From: Eledone cirrhosa
Taxonomy: Eukaryota
Assembly (NCBI GenBank): GCA_964016885.1
Contig: OZ024750.1
Location: forward strand, 30,752,001-30,816,000
DNA length: 64,000 nucleotides
Reading direction: 5' to 3'
The notes under the pieces are model-generated. The model was not told the DNA's origin and did no database searches. It was given only the letters and a program-made list of their open reading frames with translations. Positions 2,773 through 51,800 of the stretch are shown here, in pieces (the first letter of the stretch is position 1; every line of letters starts with the position of its first letter). The translations under genes and the position numbers were made by a program.

Positions 2773-2807
<35 letters not shown>

Positions 2808-2809
<2 letters not shown>

Positions 2810-3237
2810 TTATACTTTGGGTGGGTCATGTTGCCAATAAGAAACACACGCACCAGTTGCTTTTACTTCAATTTATTATAATAAATTTATAAATTTAGGA
2901 ATTTATAAATTTCCGGTTGGTTGGTTGGTTCCACAACCAGATGATTGTTTATATATTGTCAAACTAAGCACACAACACACACAAAAACAAGATGGCGTAG
3001 GACAGAACAAAGGAGAGGCACAAAAACAAAGAAAAGAATCCCCAGTCACTGAAGAGGTCACAGAATGTGTGGCGAAAGAACTTTGACAATATATGAACAA
3101 TCATCTGGTTGTGGAACCAACCAACCAACCGGAAATTTATAAATTCCTAAATTTATAAATTTATTATAATAAATTGAAGTGAAAGCAACTGGTGCGTGTG
3201 TTTCTTATTGGCAACATGACCCTCCCAAAGTATAACA
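2808..3237. repeat. Long inverted repeat / foldback element (~155-bp arms)
   Basis: 2808-2963 is nearly the reverse complement of 3082-3237; adjacent to (TA)n. Confidence 0.9.
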
Positions 3238-4512: not shown

Positions 4513-4817
4513 TTATAAACAAAGGTTACATTCGCAGCTACACACGTCAGGGTAATACATCACTGTTTCATGTTGTTCAGCTCCACACAGAGCGATAACT
4601 TCTTTAACTTTGGATGTCCTACTCTGACAGCACTTACAGTGGTTGTCGAATATCTCATTGTAGCTATCGTATTTCTTCCTTGAGAGCAGCTTTGGCATAG
4701 AAATGCTACCACCACATTTACCAGAACAATATGATATTTTCACTTTTTCAACTGAACGGCAATTACTAGTTTTGTTTTCCAGAAACAGGAATTTTGACTT
4801 CAATGTACATTGTATTT
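4513..4817 (-). CDS. Terminal exon: C-terminal cystine knot (CTCK)
   Basis: ttcAG acceptor, phase 1. [36 protein letters not shown] matches the VWF/mucin CTCK pattern (CxGxC, CxCC, CxCxxC). Confidence 0.93.
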
Positions 4818-7800: not shown

Positions 7801-10800
7801 TAGAGATCCTTATTTGAGACCCAAGAGTAATTAATATTCCAGTTCTTTTCAGATATATGTTTGAATATATAGAATATATTATCTGTCATGTTTCCAAAAT
7901 CATTCTTTGTTTTAAATTAACCAAACATAAAAAAAAAATAAAATTTAAAAGAAAAATTCTTGATATCTTTAAGTAAATGCAATTTTTATATGAAATAAAT
8001 CTCTCTTAGACTTGCCTTTTTCAAAAGACCACGAACATTACAAGTTACTTTGCAAAGTTTTCCTGGTACACATTTTCCTTTTGAATTTCTGAAGAAGTTC
8101 TTTTTACACTTGCAACCATTCTGTGGTGCTTGACAAAAGGTATTATTCAGAGATGCAAACATTTCCTTGCATGTGAGGTCACATACACCCTCTTTTGAGT
8201 ATACTTCGTTTTTATCGCATGCTAAAATTAAAATATTTTTTTATTTAAAAAAAGACAAACAGCATAGAGCATCACAATTACTAAAAGAAAAAAAAAATTC
8301 TGTTGTTGATAGGAGTGAAGACTTAAAAAACGTTTCAGTAAAGAAGTTTAAAAGATGAAACATTAATCCTTGTCTCCTTCAACAGCAAAAACCTCAATGA
8401 CTGCAAATATCAGGACAAACATTTAACATCACTCCCACTAAACATGAACAGCAAGTAACTAGAACTTTTATGATTGCTTCAAATGTTAACTTTCCACAAC
8501 ACTAAACATCATCCCTGTTGAACACTTATCACCATTAAATATTAACTTTCATCAACAGTGAACACTCATTATCATCAAATGTTAACTTTCCTCAACAGTG
8601 AACATCATCTCTGGTGAACACTGATCATCATCAAATGTTTACCTTCCATAACAGTGAACACTGATCATCATAAAATGTTAACTTTCCTCACTGGTGAACA
8701 TTTAACAAATGTTTATCTTCCACAACAGTGAACATGTCAGTGGTCTCTATCCTTCATACTGCACAGAAAGACGCTGTATAAAGGATAAAGGCCTGTCTAG
8801 GTATTGTGACCTGTCTAGGTATTGATGATGTTTGACTAGAATTTTCTTTGCTCCTTTTTCACACTTCCACAACTGTATCCATCTTTTCACTGTCATGAGC
8901 GTTTCATATTTGTTGACTTGATTTAATATAGAACAACTTCTTACAGTATGGATGCCAATGGTCAGCCATACTTGGATATGAGATAGGTGTTACCAGTCAA
9001 TTAATTTACAGAGCTATTAAATACTGAATTGGCAGAGTTGTTAGAATGCTGGATAGAATGCTTTGCCATATTCGTTCCAGCTCTCTGAGTTCAAATCCCA
9101 CCAATGTCAACTTTGCTTTATAGACTTATGGACTAGCACTCTCATTCTTTTTCTGTCTCTTGCTATTGCTGTACATTCTGCCAAACCCCTCAATATCATC
9201 TGTCGATCTCCTTTTCTACTGTCCCCTGGCCCTTTTGCCTTGTATTTGTCCCTCAAGAATGTGGGTAGTCAAAATTTGGGCCCTGATGACATGACCAAAA
9301 TCCTATTCACACACAATAACTGAGAGTATAGAGAAACACACGTGAATGTTTACTTACAGCATTTTTGTGCAGTGCAGGTTCTTTCTTCTATTTGTTTCTT
9401 ACAACCACGTTTCTTGTATTTTCTCCTAAAGACCTTAAATGTTCTTTTGCTGACACCTCTGTTACACTTACCCTTACATTTTGACCATTTTGTCCACCGT
9501 CCACATCTCACTACAATGAAAGAAATAGATTAGGAAACAGATACATATAAAACAGCAAGACAATCAAATATAGTGGAACCTCAGTCCATGAACTTAATTC
9601 ATTACTGAAGGCTATTCATCACCAAAAATGTTCATAAACCGAAACTATTTTCCCCATAGGAAATGTTGAGAGAGAAATACTGTGATAGAGAGATTGTATG
9701 TGAAAGACAGATAGATATCACAATAGTAACTAACTACACAGCAAGTGACACTTCCCCACTGATACTCTAAGCTTGTTGCCAACCGCTATTGTTGTCAGCT
9801 TGTGCATTTATTACTTGAGACACCGTTCATGAACCAAGATGTTTATGTTCTGAAAAATTGTTCATGGACCGAGGTTCTATGCTATGTGGTTTTGTTTAAG
9901 AAGTTCTGTTCAGGATTCATTTTGAATAGCAATGGCATAAAGATAATTTGATACTTGAGAAATGTCCACAAGATAGTTGAAACCAACTTGCTCTGAACCA
10001 CCTCTGGATCTATGAAACTAAATCACTAATTTTAAATGGTTCCTATTTAACTTGAAATCTTCCAACATAATTTGATTAAAGGACCCTGTATTAAGTCATG
10101 TTGCAAATAGCATCTTAGTGAAATAGATAATAATTTTAGTAAATACTTCAAAATTTATCATTAATTTATTCAAATACAGTTAATTAACAAAAGGGTTAAT
10201 TTTGTCTCTCATAATCATCAAGGGAATAAGAATCAGATGGAATGAGGAACACATGACATTCAGAAGGAGAATATGGAAAATAAAGCTCTTCTCTGTTCAG
10301 AAAAGTGATGCATATGGCGAAAGGGAGGAGGAAATAGATACATATGACATAAAGGAAAGAGTCAAATAAGATGAGTTGCAGTTTAGCTTTATGCCAGCAA
10401 GGAGTACCATGTAGGCCTTCTTCATAATGAGATAACTTGAAAAGTAGTTCTTATCTATGAATAGGTCACTATACCTGCTTTTTGTTAACCTGGAAAAAGC
10501 CTTAGATACAAGGCTAGCATGGAAAAGTATACATAATAAGTGATGTTATAGTAATTGTAGTTTATGTTTTGTTACATTACTTAAAATTTCATTTCTTTCT
10601 AAGTTAGTGTTTTAAGACATTAAATGATTGAGCTGTTCTACCAGTTCCATTTTTCTGGAGAACTTGAAATACTCTTCACAATAATTGATCTAGGAAATTT
10701 AATTATCATCATTACCATCATCTCTGTTGTGCATCTCTTTTCCATGCTTGCATCGCTTAGATGGATTGTCATTTCCAGAACCTAGACAGGTCAGGCAACC

Positions 10801-13800
10801 ATGTATTGCTCATACATTCCATTCAGGCATGGTTTCAACTGCTGTATGCCCTTCTTAATGCCAACCACTAAATAGTGTGCAACAAATGTGTTTGATCGTA
10901 GCACAGCCACTAACATTTGACAAGTTATACTGACTGCTTTTTTTTAATAGATGTGTTAAAAAAATAGTCATGAAGAAATTAAAGATTGTTAAATTTTACC
11001 TCCACAAGTCCCGTTGCAAGTTCGTCTGCTAATATCAACTGGTATTTTACAAGAGGAGTATTTAGTTTGAACACGTTTCCTTTTTTGCAAACCTGTACCA
11101 CATTTCTTATTGCATGTTGACCACATTGACCATTCCTTATAATTACAGCCTGTAACAATACAAAAAACATGTATCTCCTTTCAAATAAAGGAATATTAAC
11201 TCTTAACATCCTGTACCACATGAAACTTCATTAGAAAGATATTCTTCAAAAGTACAAAACAGCACCATGACTGTACTGCTTTAATAATCGTAGTCTTTAC
11301 TTGAATTTAGTGTAAATATTCACAATGATCTGTCCACCAGTAAAGATACTATGAACCTTTGAATTAACAAACCCATTTTTGATATTTTCAGCTAAATCAT
11401 TACAGGATGTTAAGAATTCAATTGCATATATTATTATTTCTATTTTTGGTACAAGGCCAGCAATTACCTCAGTTCATTACTGTTGCTTTATTTTATCGAT
11501 CCTGTAAGGATGAAAGGCAAAGTTAACCTTTGCGGGATTTGAATTCAGAATGTAAAGGGCCATAACTCTATGCTGCAAAGCATGGTGTCTGTTGTTCTAG
11601 TGATACTGCCAATCCACCGCCCTTGCAGATATAATGATATTGAATGTGTTTAGTGTATATGATCAAGACTCTCGAGAGCAATTTTTCATTTCATCCATCC
11701 TGCCTACTCTCAGTATAGCAAATACTAGAACTTATAAACACCAGATTAATAATTGTTTCTACCTTTGGCACAAGGCCAGCAATTATCCAGTGTATTACTG
11801 GTACTTCATTTTATCGACCCTGTAAGGATGAAAGGCAAAGTTAACCTCGCCAGGATTTGAACTCAGACCATAAAAGGCCGTAACTCTTTGCTGCAAAGCA
11901 TGGTGTCTGACCCTCTATCGATACTGCCAATCCACTGGCCTTTAATCCACACCAGATTAATAATGGTTTCTGATTTAAGCACAAGGCCAATAATTTGGCA
12001 GTGCTCACCTCTCCAAGTATTCGGTTCCTCACTAAGTTTAGTCTGCCAGCAGAAGCAGTTAATAGGGTGTGGTTGAAAAATATCCCAGAGTCAGAGTCAA
12101 AAGTAAGAACCAATGTACCCGTCCATCCATAAGGATGACAGTGCAAGATATCAAGGTATTTTCTCTACCAAAATAGTCAGTCCAGTTTTGAGATAACATT
12201 GCTTTAAACCCTGGATAACACTATGGTTGGTTTTGAAATAATATTTCTTCAAATCACTTCACTCTATTTTCAAAGGAGTATTATATAATGCTATGTCCAA
12301 TATTGAAATAACATTTCATCATCAAATAGTTTGCTGCATTTTGAAAGAGAGACTTGGTAATGGTACTTTCAGTTTTGAAATAATGCTTCTTTAAAAAAAG
12401 AGCTGCCACTTAAATTGTAAACAACTTCATGTTGGAAGGGATTATATCAGACTTAACTAGGCACAGTCGCAATATATCTGAAACATTTAATCTGTGGATT
12501 ACACCTAAATATTTCATTGATTACCAAGATGTATATTATAAGTCTGTTGTATTGGAGTTGATTTCAGTTACACCAGAAGTAAAAAGGAGAAATATTGTGG
12601 ATGTATCAGTTCTGTTGAGAAAGAACATGTAACCTGATACAAGAGATTCGGTAATCAGCAGTGATATTAAAGTTACTGAAACTGGCATTCTTTGAACAAT
12701 ATAAATAAAAACAAAGCACGTAATTGAAATGTTGAAGGAAAATATGAAAGAAGTTTAAACCTTTAGCATTTACCTTACTCTATATTTACTAAGGACAGAC
12801 ACTGGTCTGTTGGAGACGCAGAACATGGCAGCGATAATGAGGGACAGAGACCGCTGGAGAGAACTTGTCCATGGATCTCGGGAATTTTACCCGCCTTAGA
12901 TAGATAGATATATTTACTATTGTATTTTTTACAGTAAAGGCTTTATCTCACACAATATTGAATCTATGAGATTTTGATATTACTTATTTTGAGAACAATA
13001 CCTTAATGCCGGTATGAATGGCCGGTTATGGCCAGTTTGAACAGAAAGAGGTTGAGAGAATTCTAGCCAGATACAGCTAGTTTAAATGCGAAAGGGTTAA
13101 GTCTTATGTGATAAATGGTAGTTTAGAAATATTGGAGATTTGTATATCATAAAATAGATTTCAAATACAAATAGTATCAGATATATACTTACACTTCCTC
13201 TTTATTTTACAATTTTCATAATCAACTGAATTTCCTTTACATATTTTCCCACCACAGCGAGGTAATGGATTTGAGCAAGTACGAGTTCTTGTTCTGATTC
13301 CTCCAGGCTGACATGAACGGCTGCAAGAGCCCCACTCAGACCAACTTGCCCATTTTCCATCAGCTAGTGAAAAAAAAGTTTAACATAATTTAGGTTTATA
13401 TTTAATTGAAATATTAATTGTTTCTACTTTTGGCACAAGGCCAACAATTATCCCAGTGCATTACTGGTACTTTATTTTATCGACCCAGTAAGGATGAAAG
13501 GCAAAGTTAACCTCGGCAGGATTTGAACCCAGATCATAAAGGGAGGTAACTATGCTTCAAAGCATGGTGTCCGACCCTCTACCGATACTGCCAATCCACC
13601 ACCCTTTAATTGAAATATTAATATCAATTGGATGGGTTGTTACAGTCTGAGACCAGATAAGTCATCATCAACCCCTTCTTGCTTATATGTCCCATATTTG
13701 ACATAGTTTCTATGGCTGGATGCTCTTCCTAATGCCAACCAGCTTACAGGGTGTCCATGGCACCATGACTATCACTTTACAGAGTGTACTGGTTTTGTTT

Positions 13801-21300: not shown

Positions 21301-24300
21301 AATAAATAAAATGCTTACATTATTTAAGAAAAAAAATACATGACCTGTTGTTTAACACAATCGTCTTCCCAGCAATCGAGGTATTTTGGGGAGATGGGCT
21401 ACTGTCAATGAAATATTTGCTATCGCTTGTTGCTGACCTAACTGAAGTGTCAGATGTTGCCATTAAGGGGTTCTTGGCTATTCCATTTCTGTGGTAATGT
21501 CATATCTCAGATTGCCTCAAGATTTTTTAGAACAATGATTTGCACAGTCAGACCAAACATCAGCATTTTTAGTTAAAGTGTATAATTAAGTATGCCTGTC
21601 TTTTTCCTTTTTCATCTTCTTTGTGAATGTCTTTCTTTGTAATATCATAAGCCTTATATAGTCAGTTTCCTTCAAGAGTGAGCCCCATAAGTTGAAGAGC
21701 CTGTTCCAGCACACCCCCCTTGCTATCTTCTGGGGCAATGTCTTCTCCATTCTGTCCATTGAGACCACGAGGTAGACTGACCTTTAAACTTGCAAATACT
21801 TTACTTGATTAAAGAAATTGACATAAGATAAATTTCTCTACTAAATTTAGAAACAAAGTATATATAATATTGATCCCAAGTAGAATTAATTGTGACAGTT
21901 AACTAGGTACCTATGGTTAGACTGTTATCATATAGCAATACATTTATATATATCTTCATATACTCCTTGAGATGTCTTATTAGTGGCTGTACTGCAACAT
22001 GGCTTTAGTAATTTTGGGTAAAAATGTTAAAACCATAAATTTAATACATATCTCTAACCCATGCTAGCATGGAAAATAGATGTTAAAGGATGATGATGAT
22101 GCATGTATCACTGAATGTTAAAACTTTAAATTTAATAATACATATAACTATGTATGTATTATTAAATTTAAATCTATACATTTAATAATATATATAACTA
22201 TGTATGTATCACTAAATGTTAAAGCCATAAATTTAATAACATATATCTATGTTATATTAGTAAATCTAGAAGCCATAAATTTAATAATTATCTCTATGTA
22301 TCTAAGTATATATCACCAAATGAAATATTTCTATAGAAAAATTAAGAAAATACTAACCATTTCTCACAGATATGATGTGAAGAGGTTTCAAAATTATCCA
22401 GTACAGCAGTTCCATACTTATCATGGCAGAAACATTGATCTTTTGGCACACAATATCCATCTTGTTCAAGAGTATCCTCTGGACATCTACATCCAGGAAC
22501 ACAATTATCTGATTCCTGGCATACATCCTTTCCACCTTTATAGTCAGCACAAGTAAGTGGACAATGATTTGCACAGTCAGACCAAACTTTACCTCCAGTG
22601 CACACTAAGAACAAAAGAAAAACACATGAAAGATACAGGATACACAAGTTTCCTAAAATAGATTTTATGTATACACAAATGACGATGATGATGGCAGTGA
22701 TTATGGATCATTTCTTAGTTTCAATTATAAACATTTAATTGTTTGATCAACTAAACTACTTATTTGTTAGTTTAATGCATAAGTGGCTGAGTATTCCATA
22801 CTTAACAGGCCAAATCATTATGACTAAAGAATAAGAAGTTATTAATCAAATTGCAAATCTACCTATAATACAAATTTAAATAAATATATACAATTAAGGA
22901 TATATAAAATTATTTTTATATACAATTTGGTAATTCATAAGAGAACCAAAGCCTTCAATATATTATTACATAAAAACAAAAGGCATTTCTTCCTAGACAC
23001 TCACTCTGCCTGTTGCAGACTGCACATCAACATGAAATATTATTCCCCACAAAGTTCTATCACCAACAGCAGAGTTTAAAGAGCAAAAGTCAAGTCCAGT
23101 CCATAAGTTGACATTATCAAGCCAGCATTTTGGCTGTCAACCCTCCTTTTCTTACTGGCTAACTTTCCTTATTGGCATAACTTACGCACACCACAAGTTG
23201 AACTTTTGATATGACCATACAGTTTAAGTACTCTTGACTTGATAACTGATGTGATTAGTTTAAACTTGGTAATGTTGATTAGCTTATTGATAGAGATATG
23301 GTCACTAAGTTGTTTGTTATTCATAAGTCCCATGACATGGTTCTGTAATGTAGACAGTTTCAGAAGTGACCTTGTCGTCCAGTTAACACAATCAGGAACA
23401 CAACTGTTAGGATGTAAGTGTCAAAGGTTTCAGCCCTCAAATGATATGAAGCTCATTTTGATGTTAGCACTTCTTTATCCCTGTTGAAAGCTGCCCAATC
23501 CAGAACAATGCAATACTGCACAGTGACCATAACAGTTAATTTTCATAGAGTTTAGTCTTAATTATCAGGGAATGAAGACCAGATATTTTAAAGATGTAAT
23601 CATAATTCCTTTTAGTAGAAAACAATTGTGACACCTAAATAGGATCATAGACTATTCTAGAGAAAGAGAAATGAAATTTATGCATGCAGGAAATAATGAC
23701 CTCATTTTTTCAATACAAATGTTTAAAATTAGATATTTATTTCTAGGGGTTTAGTTAAGAACATATCAAGTTTAGAGCTGCCACCTTTATAAGGTTTAGC
23801 TGTTAATAATTGATAACCAAAGATTATATTGAATGTTAGAACAACAAATGAGGAAAAATTATTTGAAATCCGATATTTTGTGACCAGTTCATATTGAATG
23901 TAGTAAGATCTGAAGAAAACCAAAAGTAATGTTTATAACTATAAAATGAAAAAGTGTTGGCATGCACTGTAAATATCAGAAAATACCTTGTTCATTAGGA
24001 CATGGTTGCAATCCACATGCTGCAATTTGCACACCCATTCCAGAACAATCAGCTATTATTTCAATTTTGCTTATGCATTGTCGAGTCCTTTTCTGATATC
24101 CAATGTTACATGATGCTGAACAACTTTCCCAAGGTGCCCAAGGCATCCAGGAAGGTGATTCTGAAATGAAAAATACACATCTTTCACATAAAATATATAT
24201 CATTTACATACATCACTTTCATAAAATATATATCATTTAGATTAAATTTACATAATTTTTAAACTATGTTATTTTCATAAAATATACTTAATTTACATTC

Positions 24301-25528
24301 ACATAACATATACATACATTACATAAAATATACTTAATTTACATTATATACATCATTTACATAACATATACATACTTTACATAAAATACACATCATTTAC
24401 AAAAAATATACATCATTTACATAAAACCCTTTAAGACAATTAGGCTTTCTTTACTATTTAGTTTATATAGCTATCTATCTATATTCATCTTTTTATGGCT
24501 CTTCTACAATGTAATGTTAATAATTCTTATAATTACAAAATCCACAGAAAAATGTGTAAGAAATTACCTTCACATGGAATGAAATTGCAATCAGATGTTT
24601 CTTCTGTTGGTAAATTACAATCATCTTTTCCTTTCTTTAATAGTCTCTTCCTTGATCGAATTCTGTTTCCTGTATCACAGCTCTTGGTACATCCAGTCCA
24701 ACCAGACCAAAGGGAATAAGCACATCCTGAAATTATGATATATTTTATTTTATTTATCGATTGATTGAGAAGATCCCAGACATCATTCAGAGCAGGGGCA
24801 ATAAACACACCCTGAAATTATGATTTTTTTTTTTTATCTAGTTTTATTTATTGATCGATTGTGAAGATCCCAGATGTCATTTGGTTATCAAGTGAGGTGG
24901 AACTCATCAAATCCGACCAAGGAAACAATGTTTCCTTTGGTATTTCCATTGCTGATACTAATTACCAGTCACAACTCCTGGAAGATTAGTTACTAGGAAA
25001 AAACATTGGTATTTCCATTGCTGATACTATTTACCAGTCACAACTCTTGGAAGATTAGTTATTAGGAAAAAGGATTAAACATGAACATTTCTACACTGTC
25101 ATACATACAATACCATACAAACTGATCATATTTCAGAAAGGAATCAATAATTACCTTTACATATATTGTTGGTACATTGTAACATGGCATTATTACAAGT
25201 GCTGAAATACAGAAACAAATTATATCAGGTTAGCTGGTGCCTTAAATATCTTTTTAAAAAATCCCAAATTAAAAGGAAGATATACTATTTTATTAGTAAA
25301 TAACTGTCCCTTACCAGTTATTGCAAGAAATATGAACGATAACACCTTCCTCGATTTTATCAAATTCATGAGCAACTTCTTCTTCACTTGAGGCACCAGT
25401 TCTACCATCTTTTTCTATCCATCCTATTACATTTCCTGGGATGTAACCTAACAGTGCTTCAATATCACATATCTTGAGGACACACACTAGAAATAAAATT
25501 CAAACAATTAATACAGCTAGTAAGTGCC

Positions 25529-31500: not shown

Positions 31501-34500
31501 ACTTTTACATATTTTTGCAGATACAGATACCACCATGTTGTTTAAGGGGTAATTTGGAAAAACTTCAATTGTTATCGTCATTTGACCATTATCTTGTGGG
31601 ATATTAACTATTTTATTTGGTTGAGAGTTCTAACGAATGAAAAGAAAACTTACATTAAAAATGATATTATCCATACACATATGATATTCCCATACATATA
31701 TGATATAACACATACATATATTATATTACCATACATATATGATATAACACATACATATATTATATTACCACACATATATGATATAACACATACATATATT
31801 ATATTACCATACATATATATTATATTACCATACATATATTATATTACCATACATATATGATATAACACATACATATATTATATTACCATACATATATGAT
31901 ATAACACATACATATATTATATTACCATACATATATGATATAACACATACATATATTATATTACCACACATATATGATATAACACATACATATATTATAT
32001 TACCATACATATATTATATTACCATACATATATGATATAACACATACATATATTATATTACCATACATATATGATATAACACATACATATATTATATTAC
32101 CACACATATATGATATAACACATACATATATTATATTACCATACATATATTATATTACCATACATATATGATATAACACATACATATATTATATTACCAT
32201 ACATATATGATATAACACATACATATATTATATTACCACACATATATGATATAACACATACATATATTATATTACCATACATATATGATATAACACATAC
32301 ATATATTATATTACCATATATGATATAACACATACATATATTATATTACCATACATATATGATATAACACATACATATATTATATTACCATATATGATAT
32401 AACACATACATGTATTATATTACCATACATATATGATATAATACATACATGTATTATATTACCATACATATATGATATAACACATAAATATATTATATTA
32501 CCATACATATATGATATAACACATACATGTATTATATTACCATACATATATGATATAACACATACATATATTATATAACCATACATATATAACACATACA
32601 TATATTATATTACCATACATATATGATATAACACATACATATATTATATTACCATACATATATGATATAACACATACATGTATTATATTACCATACATAT
32701 ATGATATAACACATACATATATTATATTACCATACATATATGATATAACACATACATATATTATATAACCACACATATATGATATAACACATACATATAT
32801 TATATAACCATACATATATAACACATACATATATTATATTACCATACATATATGATATAACACATACATGTATTATATTACCATACATATATGATATAAC
32901 ACATACATATATTATATTACCATACATATATGATATAACACATACATATATTATATTACCATACATATATAACACATACATATATTATATTACCATACAT
33001 ATATGATATAACACATACATGTATTATATTACCATACATATATGATATAACACATACATATATTATATTACCATACATATATGATATAACACATACATAT
33101 ATTATATTACCATACATATATAACACATACATATATTATATTACCATACATATATAACACATACATATATTATATTACCATACATATATGATATAACACA
33201 TACATATATTATATTACCATACATATATGATATAACACATACATATATTATATTACCATACATATATGATATAACACATACATATATTATATTACCATAC
33301 ATATATAACACATACATATATTATATTACCATACATATATGATATAACACATACATATATTATATTACCATACATATATGATATAACACATACATATATT
33401 ATATTACCATACATATATGATATAACACATACATATATTATATTACCATACATATATGATATAACACATACATATATTATATTACCATACATATATGATA
33501 TAACACATACATATATTATATTACCATACATATATGATATAACACATACATATATTATATTACCATACATATATGATATAACACATACATATATTATATT
33601 ACCATACATATATGATATAACACATACATATATTATATTACCATACATATATGATATAACACATACATATATTATATTACCATACATATATGATATAACA
33701 CATACATATATTATATTACCATACATATATGATATAACACATACATATATTATATTACCATACATACATGATATAACACATACATATATTATATTACCAT
33801 ACATACATGATATAACACATACATATATTATATTACCATATTTATATGATATAACACATACATATATTATATTACCATACATATATGATATAACACATAC
33901 ATGTATTATATTACCATACATATATGATATAACACATACATGTATTATATTACCATACATATATGATATAACACATACATATATTATATTACCATACATA
34001 TATGATATAACACATACATATATTATGATATCAACTTAAATGTATTACACATACATATATTATAATTGTTTCTACTTTTGGCACAAGGCTAGCAATTATC
34101 CCAGTTTATTACTGGTACTTTATTTTATCAACCCGGTAAGGATGAAAGGCAAAGTTAACCTTGGCGGGATTTGAACTCAGTCTGTAAAGGGATGTAACTG
34201 CACTGCAAAGCATGGTGTCCGACTCTCTACAGATACTGCCAATCCACCGCCCTAAATATATTATAATATTATACACATAAATATATATTACTATACATAT
34301 ATGATATTACCATACATATAATATTACACATACATATATTATATTACCATACATATACATTACACATACCCATATTATGATATTACACATACATATATGA
34401 TATCAACATACACATATGTTGTAACACATACATGTATTATGATATTACAACACATATATGATATTATAATCTATCTATCTATATGTATATATACTAAAAC

Positions 34501-35408: not shown

Positions 35409-38400
35409 GTGTGTGCCTATGACTAGTGTATATAGATCACAAACACCAACATATATATATATATATAAACACACACACACATACATATATATGTATACAC
35501 ACACACATATATATACATGGGCCTTGCAGTTTCGTTTCACATTATATACATGTCTGTGTATATTTTAATTATCTAAAAATTATTTCTAAGTGAACATGAT
35601 TTAAAAAAAAAATTTTGAAGTGAACGTGACCCAATGGGTCATGGGTGGTCTAATATACTACTAAAACTCTGTGATTGCTTGCTTGCTTGTGTGTAATGTA
35701 ATACAGCCAAAACATTGCATAATGGGAAAATACTTTGAAAGGAAGTTGCTCCTGAAATGGGAATACAAATGGAATAAAACACGTTTTGTGTAAATCGGAG
35801 CATGGGTGCCCGAGATATGGGTTTTTTCCTTCAGGAATAGACAGAGAAAAAGATAGAGAGAAAGAGATAGTGGTTGTGAGAGAGTAGATTGAAAGAAAGA
35901 CATGTCTGTGTATATTTTAATTATTTAAAAATTATTTTTAAGTGAACATGATTTAAAAAAATAATTTTAAGTGAACGTGACCCTACAGGTCACGGTTGGT
36001 CTAGTATATTATAATATAACACATACATGTACGATATCAACATACATATATTATGATATTACCATACATATATCATATTACACAGATATATGATAACCAA
36101 ACAGTATAAAAAAAATTATTATTAAAACCAATTGGCAGAAACAGTAGGACACTATAATTAAAACAAAAATGTATGAGAGTAAGTTAATTACATTTTTGGC
36201 ACAGATAATACAAATAAAATAAGATGATATTTTACAAATACTGTAAATATTATTTCTACTTTTGGCACAAGGCCAGCAATTTAAAAGGAAAGGTAATAGC
36301 ATTACTGGTATGATTTTATCCAACCCCGTAAGGATGAAAGGCAAAGTTAACCTTGGTGGAATTTGAAAAATCCAGAATATAAAATAACATAACTATATGC
36401 TGCAAAGCATGTTGTCTGATGCTCTACTGATTCTGCCAATGGACCACAAATACTGCAAATATCAACAAGAGAAACAGCAAATGACCAACAAACTACCTTG
36501 ATTGTATATAGTGCAGAAGGATTTGATAATTTAACAGTATATTCTTTGACATTCTTATGTGTAGGAAGATAAATTGTCGCTCCAGCATCAAGAATGAAAC
36601 CAATTTCTAATGTGATAGTTCTTTTAGATGTAATATTAGTTTTCCAGCCAACATTTGGTCTGACATCACCAGGTAACCCAGAATCAGGATATAAGGTGAT
36701 TGCTGTATCAGGGATGAAAGTAGGATCATCCATTGCTTCTGATAGTTCACACAGTCCTGTTAAATAAAACAATTACATATTTCTTATATAGTGTCAAAGT
36801 GAATTGTTAATCGTTAAATGATTTAACACAAATATGAAACTGTATATTGATCTGTCTTATTTGATACACTATTGCAGATTAACTTTACTGTTATATTATA
36901 ACAAAGAAAAAAGAATGAACTCTAAGATTTAAGTCTCTCTTGTGGCTGGAGGCTTATCAGCCTGGTGCTTATCCTGGTTTCTGTGGTGTGAAGAGAACGA
37001 GAGCACAAGACTTCCCACTTGACAGGATGCCGGTCCATCACAGGGTTAAAGTCTGTCTGGAGCCCGGAGTCATCAGGCTGGGGCTTATTCCAGTTCCCAT
37101 GACTTTAAGCAATTGTGAGTACCGAAGGACAGGACGCCACTCCATTGCAGGGTTAAACTCTGTCTCAAGCCGAGAGGCCCATTAGTCCAGTGCTTATCCC
37201 TGGTTTCTTTGGTATTAAGTGACAGAGAGTACAAAACTTCTCCCAGGATAGGATGCCAGTCCACTGCAGGGTTAAAGTCTATCTCAAGCCCAGAGGCTCA
37301 TCAAGCTGGTGCTTGTCATGGTTTCGATGGCTTTAAGCGACTACGAGTACAATATCACCCCCTGGTTAGGTCACTAGTTCATCACAGAGTTTAACTCCCA
37401 TCCACTGTTGTTACTCATTTTCAGCTGAGTATACTGGAGCAATGTGAAATGAAGTGTTCTGGCCAAGAACACAATACACAACCCAGTCCAGGAACCAAAC
37501 CCACGACATTATGATCCTAAGTCCAACACCCTTACCACTAGGCCATGTGCATCTGCATATCAATGACAGAATAAATATATATGTATCTTTCCAACCCTCA
37601 AAGGGTGTATGGAATTCATATGGTATGCAATGCTGCAGAACTTTGTACAAAACTGTTATTGCAGTTGGCATCTCTTCGTAATTAAGTGTCAGTATATATT
37701 TTTTATATATGTTAAATGTGGGAAATTTGGTTGCTATTTTTTGCAGGTAGAGCAACCCTTACCTATGGTCATGAATCTTGGGTAATGTCTGAAAGAATAT
37801 GATCGCAAATACAAGTGGCTGAAATGGTGTTCCTTTGAAGTGTTTTTGGATAGAGTGTGTAGCTTGGAGATCAGAGGCTCACTCCAGGTTGAGCCACTAC
37901 TCCAAATTAAGAAATCACAGTGTCGATACTATTGGCTTGTGGTTAGAATGTCTCCGAAATGAATCGCTGGACAGATTTTATGGGCAAAACAAACTGGCAG
38001 GAGGCCTAGTGTTAGTCCCTGCGGAAGATGGTTGGATAACATCCATGAGCTTGGTTGGTCACTCTTGGGGATCCAGCCAAATCAGTTGGAGATGGTTGAG
38101 GACCCTTCCCCCATAACTCTCTCAAGAATAAGTGGCGAAGAAGAAGAGAAGAGAGCAACTACTTAGAGGCATACTTGTGGGTCTTAGAAAGTGGTATCAC
38201 TATTTTATATCAGCCACAGCACATTTCTGTGTAACTCCTCACTTCCTTTTATCATTGTAATAACAACAACAACAATAATAATTGTTTCTACTGTTTGGCA
38301 CAAGGCCAGCAATTACCCAGTACATTACTGGTACTGTATTTTATCGACCCCGTAAGGATGAAAGGCAAAGTTAACCTCGGCGGGATTTGAACTCAGAATG

Positions 38401-39875: not shown

Positions 39876-42800
39876 ACAGACAAAATAAATAGGAGATGGT
39901 TTTATAAACAGACTTACCATTATAGGTAGATAGTATTGTTGATAAAGTTTTACTTGTAGAACTTCCAACAGTAAACTGTGTACCGGTTGTTGCAGGCAGA
40001 CTAATAGTACTACTACCGGTATATGGTACGGTAGATGACATTGGTGAAAAACTAACAGTGGTGAATGGTACAGGAGATGACATTGGTGGAAAACTAACAG
40101 TGGTGAATGGTAGAGTAGATGACATTGGTGGAAAACTAAGAGTGGTGAATGGTAGTTTTGGTGTAGTAATGATAGGGGTAGATGGTATTTTAGTACTGAC
40201 TGGGGTAGATGGTATTTTAGTACTGACTGGGGTGGATGGTAGTGTTGGTGTAGTATTGACAGGGGTGGATGGTATTTTAGTAATAACAGGGGTGGATGGT
40301 ATTTTAGTAATAACAGGAGTAGATGGTATTTTAGTACTGACTAGGGTGGATGGTATTTTAGTACTGACTGGGGTGGATGGTAGCGTTGGTGTAGTAATGA
40401 CAGGGGTAGATGGTATTTTAGTACTGACTGGGGTGGATGGTATTTTGGTAATAACAGGGGTGGATGGTATTTTAGTACTGACAGGGGTAGATGGTAGCGT
40501 TGGTGTAGTAATAACAGGGGTGGATGGTATTTTAGTAATAACAGGGGAGGATGGTATTTTAGTACTGACTGGGGTGGATGGTAGTGTTGGTGTAGTAATG
40601 ACAGGGGTAGATGGTATTTTAGTACTGACTGGGGTGGATGGTATTTTGGTAATAACAGGGGTGGATGGTATTTTAGTACTGACAGGGGTAGATGGTAGCG
40701 TTGGTGTAGTAATAACAGGGGTGGATGGTATTTTAGTACTGACAGGGGTGGATGGTATTTTAGTAATAACAGGGGAGGATGGTATTTTAGTACTGACTGG
40801 GGTGGATGGTAGTGTTGGTGTAGTAATGACAGGGGTAGATGGTATTTTAGTACTGACAGGGGTAGATGGTATTTTGGTAATAACAGGGGTGGAAGGTATT
40901 TTAGTAATAACAGGGGTGGATGGTATTTTAGTAATAACAGGGGTGGATGGTATTTTAGTAATAACAGCAGTGGATGGTATTTTAGTACTGACAGGGGTAG
41001 ATGGTATTTTAGTACTGACAGGGGAGGATGGTATTTTAGTAATAACAGGGGTGGATGGTATTTTAGTAATAACAGCGGTGGATGGTATTTTAGTAATAAC
41101 AGGGGTGGATGGTATTTTAGTAATAGCAGGGGTGGATGGTATTTTAGTACTGACAGGGGTAGACGGTATTTTAGTTATAACAGCAGTGGATGGTATTTTA
41201 GTACTGACAGGGGTAGATGGTAGCGTTGGTGTAGTAATAACAGGGGTGGATGGTATTTTAGTAATAACAGGGGTGGAAGGTATTTTAGTAATAACAGGGG
41301 TGGATGGTATTTTGGTAATAACAGGGGTGGAAGGTATTTTAGTAATAACAGGGGTGGATGGTATTTTGGTAATAACAGGGGTGGAAGGTATTTTAGTAAT
41401 AACAGGGGTGGATGGTATTTTAGTAATAACAGGGGTGGATGGTATTTTAGTAATAACAGCAGTGGATGGTATTTTAGTACTGACAGGGGTAGATGGTATT
41501 TTAGTAATAACAGGGGAGGATGGTATTTTAGTAATAACAGGGGTGGATGGTATTTTAGTAATAACAGGGGTGGATGGTATTTTAGTAATAACAGGGGTGG
41601 ATGGTATTTTAGTAATAACAGGGGTGGATGGTATTTTAGTACTGACAGGGGTAGATGGTAGCGTTGGTGTAGTAATAACAGGGGTGGATGGTATTTTAGT
41701 ACTGACAGGGGTGGATGGTATTTTAGTAATAACAGGGGAGGATGGTATTTTAGTACTGACTGGGGTGGATGGTAGTGTTGGTGTAGTAATGACAGGGGTA
41801 GATGGTATTTTAGTACTGACAGGGGTGGATGGTAATTTAGTAATAACAGGGGTAGATGGCATTTTAGTAATAAAAGGGGTGGATGGTATTTTGGTAATAA
41901 CAGGGGAGGATGGTATTTTAGTACTGACTGGGGTGGATGGTAGTGTTGGTGTAGTAATGACAGGGGTAGATGGTATTTTAGTACTGACAGGGGTAGATGG
42001 TATTTTGGTAATAACAGGGGTGGAAGGTATTTTAGTAATAACAGGGGTGGATGGTATTTTAGTAATAACAGCAGTGGATGGTATTTTAGTACTGACAGGG
42101 GTAGATGGTATTTTAGTAATAACAGGGGAGGATGGTATTTTAGTAATAACAGGGGTGGATGGTATTTTAGTAATAACAGGGGTGGATGGTATTTTAGTAA
42201 TAACAGGGGTGGATGGTATTTTAGTAATAACAGGGGTGGATGGTATTTTAGTACTGACAGGGGTAGATGGTATTTTAGTTATAACAGCAGTGGATGGTAT
42301 TTTAGTACTGACAGTGGCAGATGGTATTTTAGTAATAACAGGGGTGGATGGTATTTTGGTAATAACAGGGGTGGATGGTATTTTGGTAATAACAGGGGTG
42401 GATGGTATTTTAGTAATAACAGGGGTGGATGGTATTTTAGTAATAACAGGGGTGGATGGTATTTTAGTAATAACAGGGGTGGATGGTATTTTAGTAATAA
42501 CAGGGGTAGATGGTATTTTAGTAATAACAGGGGTAGATGGTATTTTAGTAATAACAGCAGTGGATGGTATTTTAGTACTGACAGGGGCAGATGGTATTTT
42601 AGTAATAACAGGGGTGGATGGTATTTTGGTAATAACAGGGGTGGATGGTATTTTAGTAATAACAGGGGTGGATGGTATTTTAGTAATAACAGGGGTGGAT
42701 GGTATTTTGGTAATAACAGAGGTGGATGGTATTTTAGTACTGACAGGGGTAGATGGTATTTTAGTAATAACAGGGGTGGATGGTATTTTAGTAATAACAG

Positions 42801-45800
42801 CAGTGGATGGTATTTTAGTACTGACAGGGGTAGATGGTATTTTAGTAATAACAGGGGTGGATGGTATTTTAGTAATAACAGGGGTAGATGGTATTTTAGT
42901 AATAACAGCAGTGGATGGTATTTTAGTACTCACAGGGGTAGATGGTATTTTAGTAATAACAGGGGTGGATGGTATTTTAGTAATAACTGGGGTAGATGGT
43001 ATTTTAGTAATAACAGGGGTAGATGGTATTTTAGTAATAACAGGGGTAGATGGTATTTTAGTAATAACAGGGGAGGATGGTCTTTTAGTAATAACAGGGG
43101 AGGATGGTCTTTTAGTAATAACAGGGGTGGATGGTATTTTAGTACTGACTGGGGTGGATGGTATTTTGGTAATAACAGGGGAGGATGGTATTTTGGTAAT
43201 AACAGGGGTGGATGGTATTTTAGTAATGACAGGGGTGGATGGTATTTTAGTAATGACAGGGGTGGATGGTATTTTAGTAATAACAGCAGTGGATGGTACT
43301 TTAGTACTCACAGGGGTAGATGATATTTTAGTACTGACAGGGGTAGATGGTATTTTAGTACTGACAGGGGTAGATGGTATTTTAGTAATAACAGCAGTGG
43401 ATGGTATTTTAGTACTGACAGGGGTAGATGGTATTTTAGTAATAACAGCAGTGGATGGTATTTTAGTACTGACAGGGGTAGAAACGACAGGTGTAGATGG
43501 TATTTTAGTAATAACAGGTGTGGATGGTATTTTAGTAATAGCAGAGGTAGATGGTATTTTGATACTGATAGGGGTGGATGGTATTTTAGTAATAAGAGGG
43601 GTGGATCGTAGTGCTGGTGTAGTAATGACAGGGGTAGATTGTATTTCAGTACTGATAGGGGTAGCTGGTAGTGTAGGCTTAGTACTGACAGAGGTGGATG
43701 GTATTTTAGTAACGACAGGTGTAGATGGTATTTTAGTAACGACAGGTGTAGATGGTATTTTAGTACTGACAGGGGTAGATGGTATTTTAGTAATAACAGG
43801 GGTAGATGGTATTTTCGTACTGGCAGTGGTAAATGGTAGTTTACTACTGACAGGTGTAGATGGCAGTGATGATGTAGTACTTGAAGCGGTAGATGGCAGT
43901 GATGGCGTAGTTACTGCTGGTCTACTTGGTGCAGTTGTCGATGTTTTTGGTGCTCTACTAGATGCTGCAGTACTTGGTACAGTGTATGGTAACGTTGGTG
44001 ATGTACCTGGTATTGAGGATGGTAGTGTTGGTATATATCTTGAGGAACTTTCTGATGCAATGATTGGTGCACTTGCTGATGGAGGAATAGTACTGGCTAG
44101 AGTATATGTTGGCATCTTAGCTGCAGAAATAACAATGTGATATATATAATTATAATTGCTTCGTGCCATAACAAATTCTTCATTTGGATAATCATAAAAT
44201 GTATTTTGTTTTGTTGAAATTAATTATGTGGTTAGAATCTGCAACGGAAATATGGCATGGCATGGTCCTGTAACTCCCAAGGGAGTTGTAGGGGTTCTGT
44301 ATTGAAATATGGCATTTCTAGGGCTTTTTAGAACCTAGCAAAGCTCATCTCTTCTCCACAGTGTGAATAGAGAAGATTTCTTCCAGAGAAGGATAGAAAG
44401 TGAAAGAATTGAAATGAGAAAGAGATATAGAGGAAGAATCCACCCCTGTACTAGACTAGTACATTTTATCAACTTCATTGGGTGAAAGGCAAAGTTGACC
44501 TTACTTTCATATATATTGTTAAATCATAATACAGCCTGATAGTATTCATAAATGTTTTAATAAAGAATTTCTTTGTTTTAATAAAGAATTTCTTTGTTTT
44601 AACAAAGAATTTCTTGATATGAGAAATGACTTCAGGTAATGTCAATGTTTCTTTAAAAAAATTGAAATATTAACGTTTTCTAGGTATAACAATAACTGAT
44701 GGAATCAGTAGAATTACTAAAAGTTGTAATAGTTTTCTACTAAGCACTTTCTGTCAAAACATCAATGTAAACTTTTCATTACCAAATATTTAATAGAGAG
44801 ACACTGCTTAAAATTTTCATAAAAATTGTGAAAATAAAAGAAATTTCGATACATGAATACATGTCCTATTATGAAGCTGATATTTGGAAGAAAGAAGCTT
44901 ACAAAAACAAAAATATGAATAGATGAAAATTTCAGTTTTAAACAATTCAGAAAAAAAACTTTGAATCTTATAAACGATAAATGTTGAAGAGATTTGATGT
45001 CGAAATAATTTTAACTATTTCAGAAACATATCTACCAAATAAAATGTAGATAAATTAGAATTGATATGAATATGAATATAAAGCAATACGTATATATTCA
45101 AAGATTTATCTAAATTGATTCATGAGGAAAGGCATTTAACATAAAACTCACGTTGACTAGTTGTTGGTACACTTGATACAACTGCTGAAGTGGCTGGTGC
45201 CAGTGTTGTTGTAAGAGGATCTGAAGTTTAGGAAAGAAATCACAATAATCAAAATCTATGTGACTTTACAAATCAGTTGTAAATAAAGATGAGTTGCATC
45301 AGGATTAATAGAAATAAATAAATAGATTGGAATTATCACTTACGTTTACAGATTTTGGCAGACACAGATACGACCATATCTTCTGTGATATCATCAGCTT
45401 CAATTACAATCGTCACAGTTTCTTGACCATTACCACTTGGAATACCAACTGGTCTATCTGGGGTTGATGTCTGTAGAATGGATTTACATTTTTTATTAAT
45501 GATAAGATTAAAATAAACAGTGATCGTCAAAAAATATAGACAATGTCGAAATTCCATTAATGAATGAAATAGAACACTGTCTGAATTATATGTCCTTATA
45601 TTCTGTAAATTCTAGAATATCATTATATGAATTGAAATATTAATATAAAGGAAGATACATATGAAATAAGTAGAAAGAAATATGAAACTTGAATGAAAAA
45701 ATCACCATCAGATTACCTTGATTGTGTATTCTGTTGAAGGATTTGATAACAAAACAGTATATGATTTCACATTTTCATGGTCAACAAGGCTTATTGTTCC

Positions 45801-48800
45801 ACCGGCATTAAGCGTGGGACCAATTTGTAATGTGACAGTTCTTTTAGATTTAGCATTAGTTTTCCAGCCAACATTTGGTCTCACATCACTAGGTGATCCG
45901 ACATTAGGACTTAAGGTGATTGCTGTATCAGGGATGAAAGTTTCATCATCCATTGCTTCTGTTATCTCACAGAACACTGTTAAATAAAACAATTACATAT
46001 TATAAAGTGTCAAAATAAAATGATAATAGTACAAATGTTCTATATATGAAGGATAACATATGTAATAATTATTGCATTAATACTCACACTCAGTAGTTCT
46101 TTGGACAGTTGGAACAGCTGTCGAAGTTACAGGTGCTATTGTTGATGACACTGGTGCTATTGTTGATGACACAGGTTCTAGAATTTATAAAGAATATCTA
46201 CTTAGTGAATTGTTTTAGACAATTAAAGCAGATCTTTGCACCAGAATAATTGTAAAGAAAATAAAATGAAATATCCTAGATTTCATAGTGAATCTAATCT
46301 TTTAAATATTTGAAAATTAGAGCGTTCCACATATCCATAAGTATGTATTTGTAAATTAGAGCGTTCCACATATCCATGAATAAATCTATGTATTTATATG
46401 TTGATTTGTCTAGATGTATAAAAGGTACACAGCTCAATGTCAGTATTATGTTTTTCTTTCCATAAACATTATTGCTACTAAGAAATGTTTTAAGGGAGAT
46501 AAGAATAAATGAAGTAAACTAATTGTTTGATTCAATGTGATATTTATTTTGACTGATGGCTGATAAAAGTTCCAGAAAATTTGGAAGGAAATGTAATAAA
46601 GTAAAATAAAATCAATATGAATTAGATTTTTTACGAAGAATAAGCTGCTGGTAGAAAGCGATATCATGTAGAAACCACAGAAAATAGTGGAGATTCAAAT
46701 ATTTGTATTAATAGTTGAACATGACATTAAGTTTGAAAAATTATTATTGATACAATATTTAATGCCAGTAATAAACGTATGAATTACAATAGGAAAATTA
46801 TATATGAATGAAACAAATTTACAAATTTTTAAAGAACTCCCTTCAGATAGATATGTCTTTCAATTAAATATATAGTTTCCATTTATGTGTGATGTAGGAA
46901 TGAAGCACTTGCCTGATTAATTATACATATGAAATATACCAGCTTTTATGTAATTGTTAGATGTTAACTGGGATTGTTTCAAAATGAGTCCTTATAAAAG
47001 AACTGTAAATTTTAAAAACAAAACTAGAGATCCAAGTTGCAAATTAATGAAGGTTTATTGGAATTACCAAATATACAGCCATACATATATATTGAAAGAT
47101 TTATCTACATTGATTCATGAGGAAAGTCATTTAACATAAAACTCACGTTGACTAGTTGTTGGTACACTTGATACAACTGCTGAAGTGGCTGGTGCCAGTG
47201 TTGTTGTAAGAGGATCTGAAGTTTAGGAAAGAAATCACAATAATCAAAATCTATGTGACTTTACACATCAGTTGTAAATAAAGATGAGTTGCATCAGGAT
47301 TAATAGAAATAAATAAATAGATTGGAATTATCACTTACGTTTACAGATTTTGGCAGACACAGATACGACCATATCTTCTGTGATATCATCAGCTTCAATT
47401 ACAATCGTCACAGTTTCTTGACCATTACCACTTGGAATACCAACTGGTCTATCTGGGGTTGATGTCTGTAGAATGGATTTACATTTTTTATTAATGATAA
47501 GATTAAAATAAACAGTGATCGTCAAAAAATATAGACAATGTCGAAATTCCATTAATGAATGAAATAGAACACTGTCTGAATTATATGTCCTTATATTCTG
47601 TAAATTCTAGAATATCATTATATGAATTGAAATATTAATATAAAGGAAGATACATATGAAATAAGTAGAAAGAAATATGAAACTTGAATGAAAAAATCAC
47701 CATCAGATTACCTTGATTGTGTATTCTGTTGAAGGATTTGATAACAAAACAGTATATGATTTCACATTTTCATGGTCAACAAGGCTTATTGTTCCACCGG
47801 CATTAAGCGTGGGACCAATTTGTAATGTGACAGTTCTTTTAGATTTAGCATTAGTTTTCCAGCCAACATTTGGTCTCACATCACTAGGTGATCCGACATT
47901 AGGACTTAAGGTGATTGCTGTATCAGGGATGAAAGTTTCATCATCCATTGCTTCTGTTATCTCACAGAACACTGTTAAATAAAACAATTACATATTATAA
48001 AGTGTCAAAATAAAATGATAATAGTACAAATGTTCTATATATGAAGGATAACATATGTAATAATTATTGCATTAATACTCACACTCAGTAGTTCTTTGGA
48101 CAGTTGGAACAGCTGTCGAAGTTACAGGTGCTATTGTTGATGACACAGGTGCTATTGTTGATGACACAGGTTCTAGAATTTAGAAAGAATATCTACTTAG
48201 TGAATTGTTTTAGACAATTAAAGCAGATCTTTGCACCAGAATAATTGTAAAGAAAATAAAATGAAATATCCTAGATTTCATAGTGAATCTAATCTTTTAA
48301 ATATTTGAAAATTAGAGCGTTCCACATATCCATAAGTATATATTTGTAAATTAGAGCGTTCCACATATCCATGAATAAATCTATGTATTTATATGTTGAT
48401 TTGTCTAGATGTATAAAAGGTACACAGCTCAATGTCAGTATTATGTTTTTCTTTACATAAACATTATTGCTACTAAGAAATGTTTTAAGGGAGATAAGAA
48501 TAAATGAAGTAAACTAATTGTTTGATTCAATGTGATATTTATTTTGACTGATGGCTGATAAAAGTTCCAGAAAATTTGGAAGGAAATGTAATAAAGTAAA
48601 ATAAAATCAATATGAATTAGATTTTTTACGAAGAATAAGCTGCTGGTAGAAAGCGATATCATGTAGAAACCACAGAAAATAGTGGAGATTCAAATATTTG
48701 TATTAATAGTTGAACATGACATTAAGTTTGAAGAATTATTATTGATACAATATTTATAAACCACATTAATATAATGCCAGTAATAAACGAATGAATTACA

Positions 48801-51800
48801 ATAGGAAAATTATATATGAATGAGACAAATTTACAAATTTTTAAAGAACTCCCTTCAGATAGATATGTCTTTCAATTAAATATATAGTTTCCATTTATGT
48901 GTGATGTAGGAATGAAGCACTTGCCTGATTAATTATACATATGAAATATACCAGCTTTTATGTAATTGTTAGATGTTAACTGGGATTGTTTCAAAATGAG
49001 TCCTTATAAAAGAACTGTAAATTTTAAAAACAAAACTAGAGATCCAAGTTGCAAATTAATGAAGGTTTATTGGAATTACCAAATATACAGCCATACATAT
49101 ATATTGAAAGATTTATCTACATTGATTCATGAGGAAAGTCATTTAACATAAAACTCACGTTGACTAGTGGTTGGTACACTTGATACAACTGCTGAAGTGG
49201 CTGGTGCCAGTGTTGTTGTAAGAGGATCTGAAGTTTAGGAAAGAAATCACAATAATCAAAATCTATGTGACTTTACAAATCAGTTGTAAATAAAGATGAG
49301 TTGCATCAGGATTAATAGAAATAAATAAATAGATTGGAATTATCACTTACGTTTACAGATTTTGGCAGACACAGATACGACCATATCTTCTGTGATATCA
49401 TCAGCTTCAATTACAATCGTCACAGTTTCTTGACCATTACCACTTGGAATACCAACTGGTCTATCTGGGGTTGATGTCTGTAGAATGGATTTACATTTTT
49501 TATTAATGATAAGATTAAAATAAACAGTGATCGTCAAAAAATATAGACAATGTCGAAATTCCATTAATGAATGAAATAGAACACTGTCTGAATTATATGT
49601 CCTTATATTCTGTAAATTCTAGAATATCATTATATGAATTGAAATATTAATATAAAGGAAGATACATATGAAATAAGTAGAAAGAAATATGAAACTTGAA
49701 TGAAAAAATCACCATCAGATTACCTTGATTGTGTATTCTGTTGAAGGATTTGATAACAAAACAGTATATGATTTCACATTTTCATGGTCAACAAGGCTTA
49801 TTGTTCCACCGGCATTAAGCGTGGGACCAATTTGTAATGTGACAGTTCTTTTAGATTTAGCATTAGTTTTCCAGCCAACATTTGGTCTCACATCACTAGG
49901 TGATCCGACATTAGGACTTAAGGTGATTGCTGTATCAGGGATGAAAGTTTCATCATCCATTGCTTCTGTTATCTCACAGAACACTGTTAATTAAAACAAT
50001 TACATATTATAAAGTGTCAAAATAAAATGATAATAGTACAAATGTTCTATATATGAAGGATAACATATGTAATAATTATTGCATTAATACTCACACTCAG
50101 TAGTTCTTTGGACAGTTGGAACAGCTGTCGAAGTTACAGGTGCTATTGTTGATGACACAGGTGCTATTGTTGATGACACAGGTTCTAGAATTTAGAAAGA
50201 ATATCTACTTAGTGAATTGTTTTAGACAATTAAAGCAGATCTTTGCACCAGAATAATTGTAAAGAAAATAAAATGAAATATCCTAGATTTCATAGTGAAT
50301 CTAATCTTTTAAATATTTGAAAATTAGAGCGTTCCACATATCCATAAGTATGTATTTGTAAATTAGAGCGTTCCACATATCCATGAATAAATCTATGTAT
50401 TTATATGTTGATTTGTCTAGATGTATAAAAGGTACACAGCTCAATGTCAGTATTATGTTTTTCTTTCCATAAACATTATTGCTACTAAGAAATGTTTTAA
50501 GGGAGATAAGAATAAATGAAGTAAACTAATTGTTTGATTCAATGTGATATTTATTTTGACTGATGGCTGATAAAAGTTCCAGAAAATTTGGAAGGAAATG
50601 TAATAAAGTAAAATAAAATCAATATGAATTAGATTTTTTACGAAGAATAAGCTGCTGGTAGAAAGCGATATCATGTAGAAACCACAGAAAATAGTGGAGA
50701 TTCAAATATTTGTATTAATAGTTGAACATGACATTAAGTTTGAAAAATTATTATTGATACAATATTTAATGCCAGTAATAAACGTATGAATTACAATAGG
50801 AAAATTATATATGAATGAGACAAATTTACAAATTTTTAAAGAACTCCCTTCAGATAGATATGTCTTTCAATTAAATATATAGTTTCCATTTATGTGTGAT
50901 GTAGGAATGAAGCACTTGCCTGATTAATTATACATATGAAATATACCAGCTTTTATGTAATTGTTAGATGTTAACTGGGATTGTTTCAAAATGAGTCCTT
51001 ATAAAAGAACTGTAAATTTTAAAAACAAAACTAGAGATCCAAGTTGCAAATTAATGAAGGTTTATTGGAATTACCAAATATACAGCCATACATATATATT
51101 GAAAGATTTATCTACATTGATTCATGAGGAAAGTCATTTAACATAAAACTCACGTTGACTAGTTGTTGGTACACTTGATACAACTGCTGAAGTGGCTGGT
51201 GCCAGTGTTGTTGTAAGAGGATCTGAAGTTTAGGAAAGAAATCACAATAATCAAAATCTATGTGACTTTACAAATTAGTTGTAAATAAAGATGAGTTGCA
51301 TCAGGATTAATAGAAATAAATAAATAGATTGGAATTATCACTTACGTTTGCAGATTTTGGCAGACACAGATACGACCATATCTTCTGTGATATCATCAGC
51401 TTCAATTACAATCGTCACAGTTTCTTGACCATTACCACTTGGAATACCAACTGGTCTATCTGGGGTTGATGTCTGTAGAATGGATTTATATCTTTTATTA
51501 ATGATAAGATTAAAATAAACAGTGATCGTCAAAAAATATAGACAATGTCGAAATTCCATTAATGAATGAAATAGAACACTGTCTGAATTATATGTCCTTA
51601 TATTCTGTAAATTCTAGAATATCATTATATGAATTGAAATATTAATATAAAGGAAGATACATATGAAATAAGTAGAAAGAAATATGAAACTTGAATGAAA
51701 AAATCACCATCAGATTACCTTGATTGTGTATTCTGTTGAAGGATTTGATAACAAAACAGTATATGATTTCACATTTTCATGGTCAACAAGGCTTATTGTT

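Follow-up and report, generated by a model that had tools for sequence, protein, structure and literature searches.

In a stretch of 64,000 nucleotides of the Eledone cirrhosa genome (contig OZ024750.1, positions 30,752,001 to 30,816,000 of the forward strand), hereafter called the window, a gene read from the minus strand carries a tandemly repeated domain that, judging from structure models, very probably has a discoidin fold. The reading that we favour, with reasonable rather than high confidence, is that this domain is a shortened, sequence-cryptic beta-sandwich of the discoidin/FA58C fold, closed by a single predicted disulfide between its two ends, and that it would be the bead of a giant secreted mucus or glue glycoprotein of the SCO-spondin/AP2 type.

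A cryptic domain with a probable discoidin fold

The domain is encoded by two minus-strand exons, which lie within 45344..45976 exactly where an earlier note on this DNA had placed them. Exon B (45717..45976, 260 nt, with an AG acceptor and a GT donor) supplies the N-terminal 86 amino acids (aa), including the first cysteine, the DVRP-GW segment and the NV motif, and exon C (45344..45470, 127 nt, with AG and GT ends) supplies the C-terminal 42 aa with the last strands and the second cysteine. Joined by script, they give 128 full codons with cysteines at positions 2 and 127 only and one tryptophan in the entire domain, in agreement with the earlier description of about 129 residues with a single cysteine at each end.

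Structure models of two homologues, standing in for the window domain, were superposable as a jelly-roll beta-sandwich over the whole domain, and the best full-length structural matches, among the matches listed, were protein- or lipid-binding discoidin domains of animals. The ends of the model align to the ends of the targets and, in 45 delimited domains of the family, which are not independent of one another, the first cysteine is kept in 43 and the last in all 45. The highly divergent discoidin/FA58C fold that had been proposed from the letters alone is thus supported, as is the statement that the domain is shorter than a canonical one (128 against about 150 aa). A profile search of the PDB gave a weak match to an F5/8 type C protein (E 0.82).

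The relationship is cryptic at the level of sequence. PF00754, the Pfam model of FA58C, gave no match at E values up to 10 for exons B and C, for their divergent counterparts B' and C' described below, or for any of 22 aligned family members, and none at E up to 1 in the family domains of 30 of 30 proteins, plus 3 of 3 in a second set; as a control, the same model does detect canonical domains elsewhere in the proteins P0043 and P0045. This profile comparison had been put forward in the earlier note as a check. PROSITE-type FA58C signatures matched none of the 45 domains (ARL 0, TQG 0). Against two canonical discoidin domains the pairwise z was at most 4.1 and the hhalign probability 0.8%. Exon B alone retrieved nothing in Pfam, among longer proteins searched by word index (none of 91 candidates), in PDB sequences or in the Atlas above 0.80, and PDB sequence searches with the family alignments returned only designed Pizza propellers and weak matches. 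In P0043 and P0045 a canonical F5_F8 domain adjoins the cryptic one, which is suggestive, as an argument from sequence, of common descent with the animal discoidin domains.

The window holds 11 copies of the domain, ten in tandem and one divergent. The divergent copy is made of exon B' (36497..36756, minus strand; 71% aa identity to B) for its N-terminal part and exon C' (31503..31629, minus strand; 52% aa identity to C) for its C-terminal part, and as a whole is 65% identical to the array domain. The unnamed subfamily of at least 11 copies reported earlier is therefore right in its count, but the window contains two distinct domain sequences and not 11 diverged paralogues, because the ten array copies arose by duplication of one entire four-exon unit in the genome and are almost identical. 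The intron between B' and C' contains a 39-bp AT-rich tandem array of ~63 copies (94% match, 31661-34064), 32 bp from the C' acceptor.

The B-C junction is unbroken in the RefSeq homologues P0002 and P0034, and a K/Q-V read-through at the offset equal to the exon B donor of the window was found in 8 of 21 anchored exon-B-type matches (22 examined). In seven exon-B-type matches (P0003, P0010, P0011, P0012, P0022, P0023 and P0024) the possible read-through of a donor lies five codons before that of the window, which suggests a second subfamily with a putatively shorter first exon.

The domain family

Searching with a profile of two rows, B and B', yielded 31 matches, including many exon-B-like fragments; three of them, P0019, P0029 and P0031, were discarded as unrelated repeat proteins. 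The closest named homologues are from Octopus bimaculoides (58-59% identity), which points to a probable octopod gene. One of these, P0034 ('SCO-spondin-like'), has a signal-like start, three VWD-C8-TIL units and an LDLa domain, followed by two family domains; a chiton 'mucin-2-like' protein has seven copies between Thr-rich linkers, and TIL-VWC proteins from JGI/Logan have 2-5 copies each.

Across the 45 domains N68 and V69 are invariant, like the last cysteine; D30 is present in 43, D16 and P28 in 41, and G36-W37 and R32 in 38. The family has motifs of its own (D-R-P..GW, NV and the final C) and differs from known Discoidin/FA58C domains (PF00754; neuropilin b1/b2, DDR1/2 DS, factor V/VIII C, CASPR2), to which it shows 10-20% identity, in being about 25-30 aa shorter and in having neither a Pfam match nor the FA58C signatures.

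P0043 (4511 aa) shows a gradient along one chain: within positions 157-3586, a canonical F5_F8 domain is followed by a cryptic one and this by 18 modules, each of about 118 aa with two Cys, on Thr-rich linkers and with a mean identity of 43%. No Pfam family matched these modules, and hhalign to the domain family gave 3.7%; they may be a still more reduced discoidin.

A possible link to flatworm adhesion proteins

The flatworm adhesion protein Mlig-ap2 (14,794 aa) has been described as a VWD/TIL/LDLa head, central repeats of 21 x 255 aa and 25 x 221 aa, and a TSP1/TIL tail (PMC6410801, PMC8621496); its repeats are termed 'of unknown function' (PMC6745481), and the flatworm papers consider them the likely seat of surface binding (PMC6745481, PMC8621496). 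Relatives are Mile-ap2 and the polyclad Tmed-ap2, the latter with similar arrays (PMC9229212). We compared the AP2 sequence printed in the supplementary information, plus the Dataset S1 peptides, by eye. Every repeat consists of a module of ~145-155 aa, whose only two cysteines are terminal, and a Thr-rich linker behind it. TSP1-TSP1-TIL stands behind the array, as in the window gene, and a cystine-knot-like pattern is seen at the protein end. The early block of repeat B is identical at 8 of 15 positions to domain 3 of P0007, and its next block (L.PSG.G.PVK) at 8 of 12 to domain 4 of the same protein, the order of the blocks being correct, and the closing stretch of repeat A is identical at 7 of 14 to that of the P0014 domain. 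Agreement of this kind has a rough expected count of 0.017 (8/12), 0.19 (8/15) and 1.5 (7/14) at the equivalent position, and 0.16, 1.7 and 14 at any position, so that the three blocks alone are suggestive and not proof.

Several points weigh against this link. The AP2 repeats lack the tryptophan and the NV motif of the family; they are strongly basic, rich in Lys and Arg, whereas the window domain is acidic; and the putative homology consists of blocks matched by eye. On balance, we lean towards a composite proposal: a Pfam-invisible discoidin family would provide the repeating bead shared by giant mucus and glue proteins of Spiralia; the 46 repeats of the surface glue Mlig-ap2, three-quarters of that protein, would be folded discoidins on Thr-rich linkers; and the cephalopod-type gene would be homologous to AP2 and would have amplified its own array separately, to 60-90 beads or roughly 11,000-16,000 aa. 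As a whole, this seems to us moderately probable. If it is true, one tunable module underlies both the reversible wet adhesion of flatworms and the cohesion of mollusc mucus, and its job is set by the chemistry of its surface, which is basic in the glue and acidic here.

The tandem array and its copy number

The array extends on the minus strand from about 45075 to 64000 in units of ~2.0 kb (1995, 2011 or 2012 bp), each with exons A-B-C-D. Exon A (46088..46177, minus strand, 90 nt, with an internal 21-bp repeat) is a 30-codon Thr/Ser/Pro linker ahead of the domain, and exon D (45152..45220, minus strand, 69 nt) a 23-codon Thr/Ser/Pro linker behind it; T, S and P make up 56% of linker residues. 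The coding part of each unit is 546 nt, or 182 aa. The last of the ten domain copies is cut by the window edge, at which the array is open.

The array copies are 98.5-100% identical, introns included, and the nine complete units differ by 6-14 substitutions in pairwise comparison. Variable sites number 9 in 546 nt of exon (4 synonymous and 5 single-copy replacements) and 27 in about 1449 nt of intron, an equal density, while indels are confined to introns. Units of the 1995-bp and 2012-bp types are told apart by a 17-bp intron indel, at 46759 and its equivalents along the array. The insert is missing from units 1 and 3, and non-adjacent units have several substitutions in common, the pattern expected under gene conversion or unequal crossover. 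We infer a recent expansion or a continuing homogenisation of the entire DNA unit. Between the array domain and the divergent copy, the ratio of non-synonymous to synonymous substitution rates (dN/dS) is 0.64.

A head-to-tail joint stepping back 1995 bp was present in three of three contig runs, all of one sample that is possibly the source of the assembly. In these the depth of the unit was 460, 503 and 623, compared with 5.9, 5.6 and 10.3 on one flanking contig, giving ratios of 78, 90 and 60, which are not a copy number, and to which other loci could contribute. They are only a hint at 60-90 array units, which would mean 11,000-16,000 aa from the array alone. Among the listed runs containing 45300-46300 there was no RNA dataset. 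Just outside the array, a short and very high-copy repeat at about 44364-44484 reached depths of about 137,000-161,000 in the three runs, and is probably a SINE-like (short interspersed nuclear element) sequence.

Proposed function and alternative explanations

In mucins and von Willebrand factor (VWF), a VWD head and a cystine-knot tail polymerise the chains, and the Thr/Ser/Pro linkers are O-glycosylated. By analogy with these proteins and with the homologues, the window protein would be secreted; as in P0034, the array would be preceded by a signal peptide and by three VWD-C8-TIL units, the chains would polymerise through their VWD heads and cystine-knot tails, and the linkers and the proline-, threonine- and serine-rich (PTS) region would be O-glycosylated. 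That the domain serves as a bead in a secreted polymer of mucus or glue appears to us likely. Each bead may then make weak contacts with further beads, with partner proteins of the mucus or with a surface, which is the least secure step, and tens of identical beads would confer avidity, cross-linking the gel or holding it to a surface, much as the CysD domains that cross-link vertebrate mucins. Unequal crossover or gene conversion acting on the whole 2-kb unit would keep the array uniform. Whether the bead is mainly a multivalent cross-linker of proteins or surfaces, as the analogy would have it, we consider evenly balanced; the predicted homodimer score, 0.00 in both runs, speaks neither for nor against binding.

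The beads might instead be lectin modules like CBM32 or sea-urchin nectin, which give a precedent in the same fold (PMC10057474, PMC9382459), and bind galactose/GalNAc-type glycans on neighbouring mucins or microbes. The best full-length matches among those listed are, however, with non-lectin discoidins, aromatic residues are few in the domain, and neither His nor Arg is conserved near the invariant Asn. The sugar sites of CBM32 use aromatic, His and Arg residues, and we hold a lectin function to be unlikely. Even less probable, in our view, is that the beads bind nothing and instead determine how long the polymer is and how it behaves mechanically, as rigid spacers resistant to proteases or as unfoldable springs, with selection acting on copy number. 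Such a role would agree with the shortening of the loops seen in the alignment with the canonical domain, with the weak constraint indicated by dN/dS, with the 18 still shorter modules of P0043, and with a domain surface that by eye is basic in AP2 and acidic in the window gene; on the other side, a surface-looking cluster (D16, P28, D30, R32, P33, G36 and W37) is conserved in 37-43 of the 45 domains, though perhaps for structural reasons.

The near identity of the units, together with the single sample behind the runs that hold the stretch, could also raise the suspicion of an assembly artefact or of a non-coding satellite in which the domain is a chance reading. This is largely refuted and hardly credible to us: the units differ at shared and private sites, no exon copy has a stop or frameshift, homologues in other species have the identical junction, and the depth is 60-90 times that of the flank.

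Comparison with known systems

In hemolectin, which the earlier note had named as a carrier of FA58C domains, F5_F8 domains stand behind the VWD-C8-TIL units and are described as characteristic of lophotrochozoan mucins (Lang et al. 2016, PMC4948705). The homologue P0034 shares the layout of these SCO-spondin-like/hemolectin-type gel mucins with F5_F8. The window gene differs from them in that its F5_F8-fold domains are invisible to Pfam, number at least 11 and perhaps 60-90, alternate with PTS linkers and lie in a homogenised genomic array. SCO-spondin-like proteins have been found in octopus skin mucus (PMC11431876) and in limpet pedal mucus (PMC7333891), neither of them matched to the window gene. 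Two Patella proteins of the latter study, P-vulgata_3 and P-vulgata_6, are described one with head domains only and the other (1860 aa) with TSP1 and a cystine knot only and with similarity to Mlig-ap2 (PMC7333891); they may be the two ends of one gene of the window type, with unannotated cryptic domains.

Sea-urchin nectin and sea-star Sfp1/Sfp11 likewise have tandem discoidin domains in secreted marine adhesives, but these are canonical and detectable by Pfam, and nectin, as described, has six domains and no VWD/TSP1 mucin frame (PMC10057474, PMC9382459). The CysD domain (Mucin2_WxxW) of vertebrate gel-forming mucins is also a small domain repeated inside PTS regions (PMC4948705), whereas the window domain has no WxxW motif, one Trp, two Cys only and no Pfam match; CysD structures were not among the matches listed in the structure comparison and are not thereby excluded.

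As F5_F8 domains in lophotrochozoan mucins have already been published (PMC4948705), the fold alone is no surprise. In the literature that our search covered, which excluded most subscription papers, neither these cephalopod repeats nor the AP2 repeats are given a discoidin fold. A single summary sentence of PMC10057474 lists four domain types that recur in adhesives, FA58C being one of them, and mentions Mlig-ap2 in that list without a tie to its repeats, and the available text of PMC12472103 likewise contains no such assignment. A whole clade of domains escapes Pfam and stays unannotated in 'uncharacterized', 'mucin-2-like' and 'SCO-spondin-like' proteins, and a new profile would annotate it. 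If the by-eye link to AP2 holds, the AP2 repeats gain a fold and a soluble unit of 130-155 aa, and a question of bioadhesion becomes directly testable. The locus itself may code for a very large protein that arose as a cassette of four exons evolved in concert.

The rest of the gene in the window

The exons joined from the window end through the PTS mucin exon to C' form 3303 codons with 0 stops. The PTS mucin exon (39918..44120, minus strand, 4.2 kb) joins the array to the divergent domain in frame and is mostly a 27-bp repeat of about 135 copies; together with the Thr/Ser/Pro linkers, it gives the protein a PTS region of the kind found in gel-forming mucins and SCO-spondin-like proteins. The strand opposite 39918-44120 is likewise open, for 1404 codons, as a by-product of the repeat.

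Further along the minus strand, three TSP1 and two TIL exons scored above the Pfam cut-offs, their ends being approximate: TSP1 at 24537..24726 (TSP_1, E 7.4e-9, with splice candidates), 23987..24160 (E 3.5e-9) and 13193..13363 (E 1.1e-9), and TIL at 22354..22604 (E 5.1e-10) and 7989..8221 (E 4.7e-7). By eye on the translations only, we noted TSP1-like exons near 20490-20562, 11000-11149 and 9358-9510 and a VWC-like exon near 7314-7418, all on the minus strand. The probable last coding exon (4516..4817, minus strand) encodes a cystine-knot-like domain up to the stop (Pfam Cys_knot, E 0.0034, under the curated cut-off). These tail exons would be spliced to those of the array.

The open reading frame at 5552-5770 matched no Pfam family. 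Two intronic fragments of open reading frames on the minus strand, at 7548-7916 and 23169-23420, resemble by eye what we take to be the C-terminal ends of reverse-transcriptase proteins of the LINE (long interspersed nuclear element)/RTE type. Other tandem arrays, intronic or intergenic and with 95-98% match, occupy 1922-2383 (66 bp x 7), 16068-16423 (97 bp x 3.7) and 38703-39156 (76 bp x 6).

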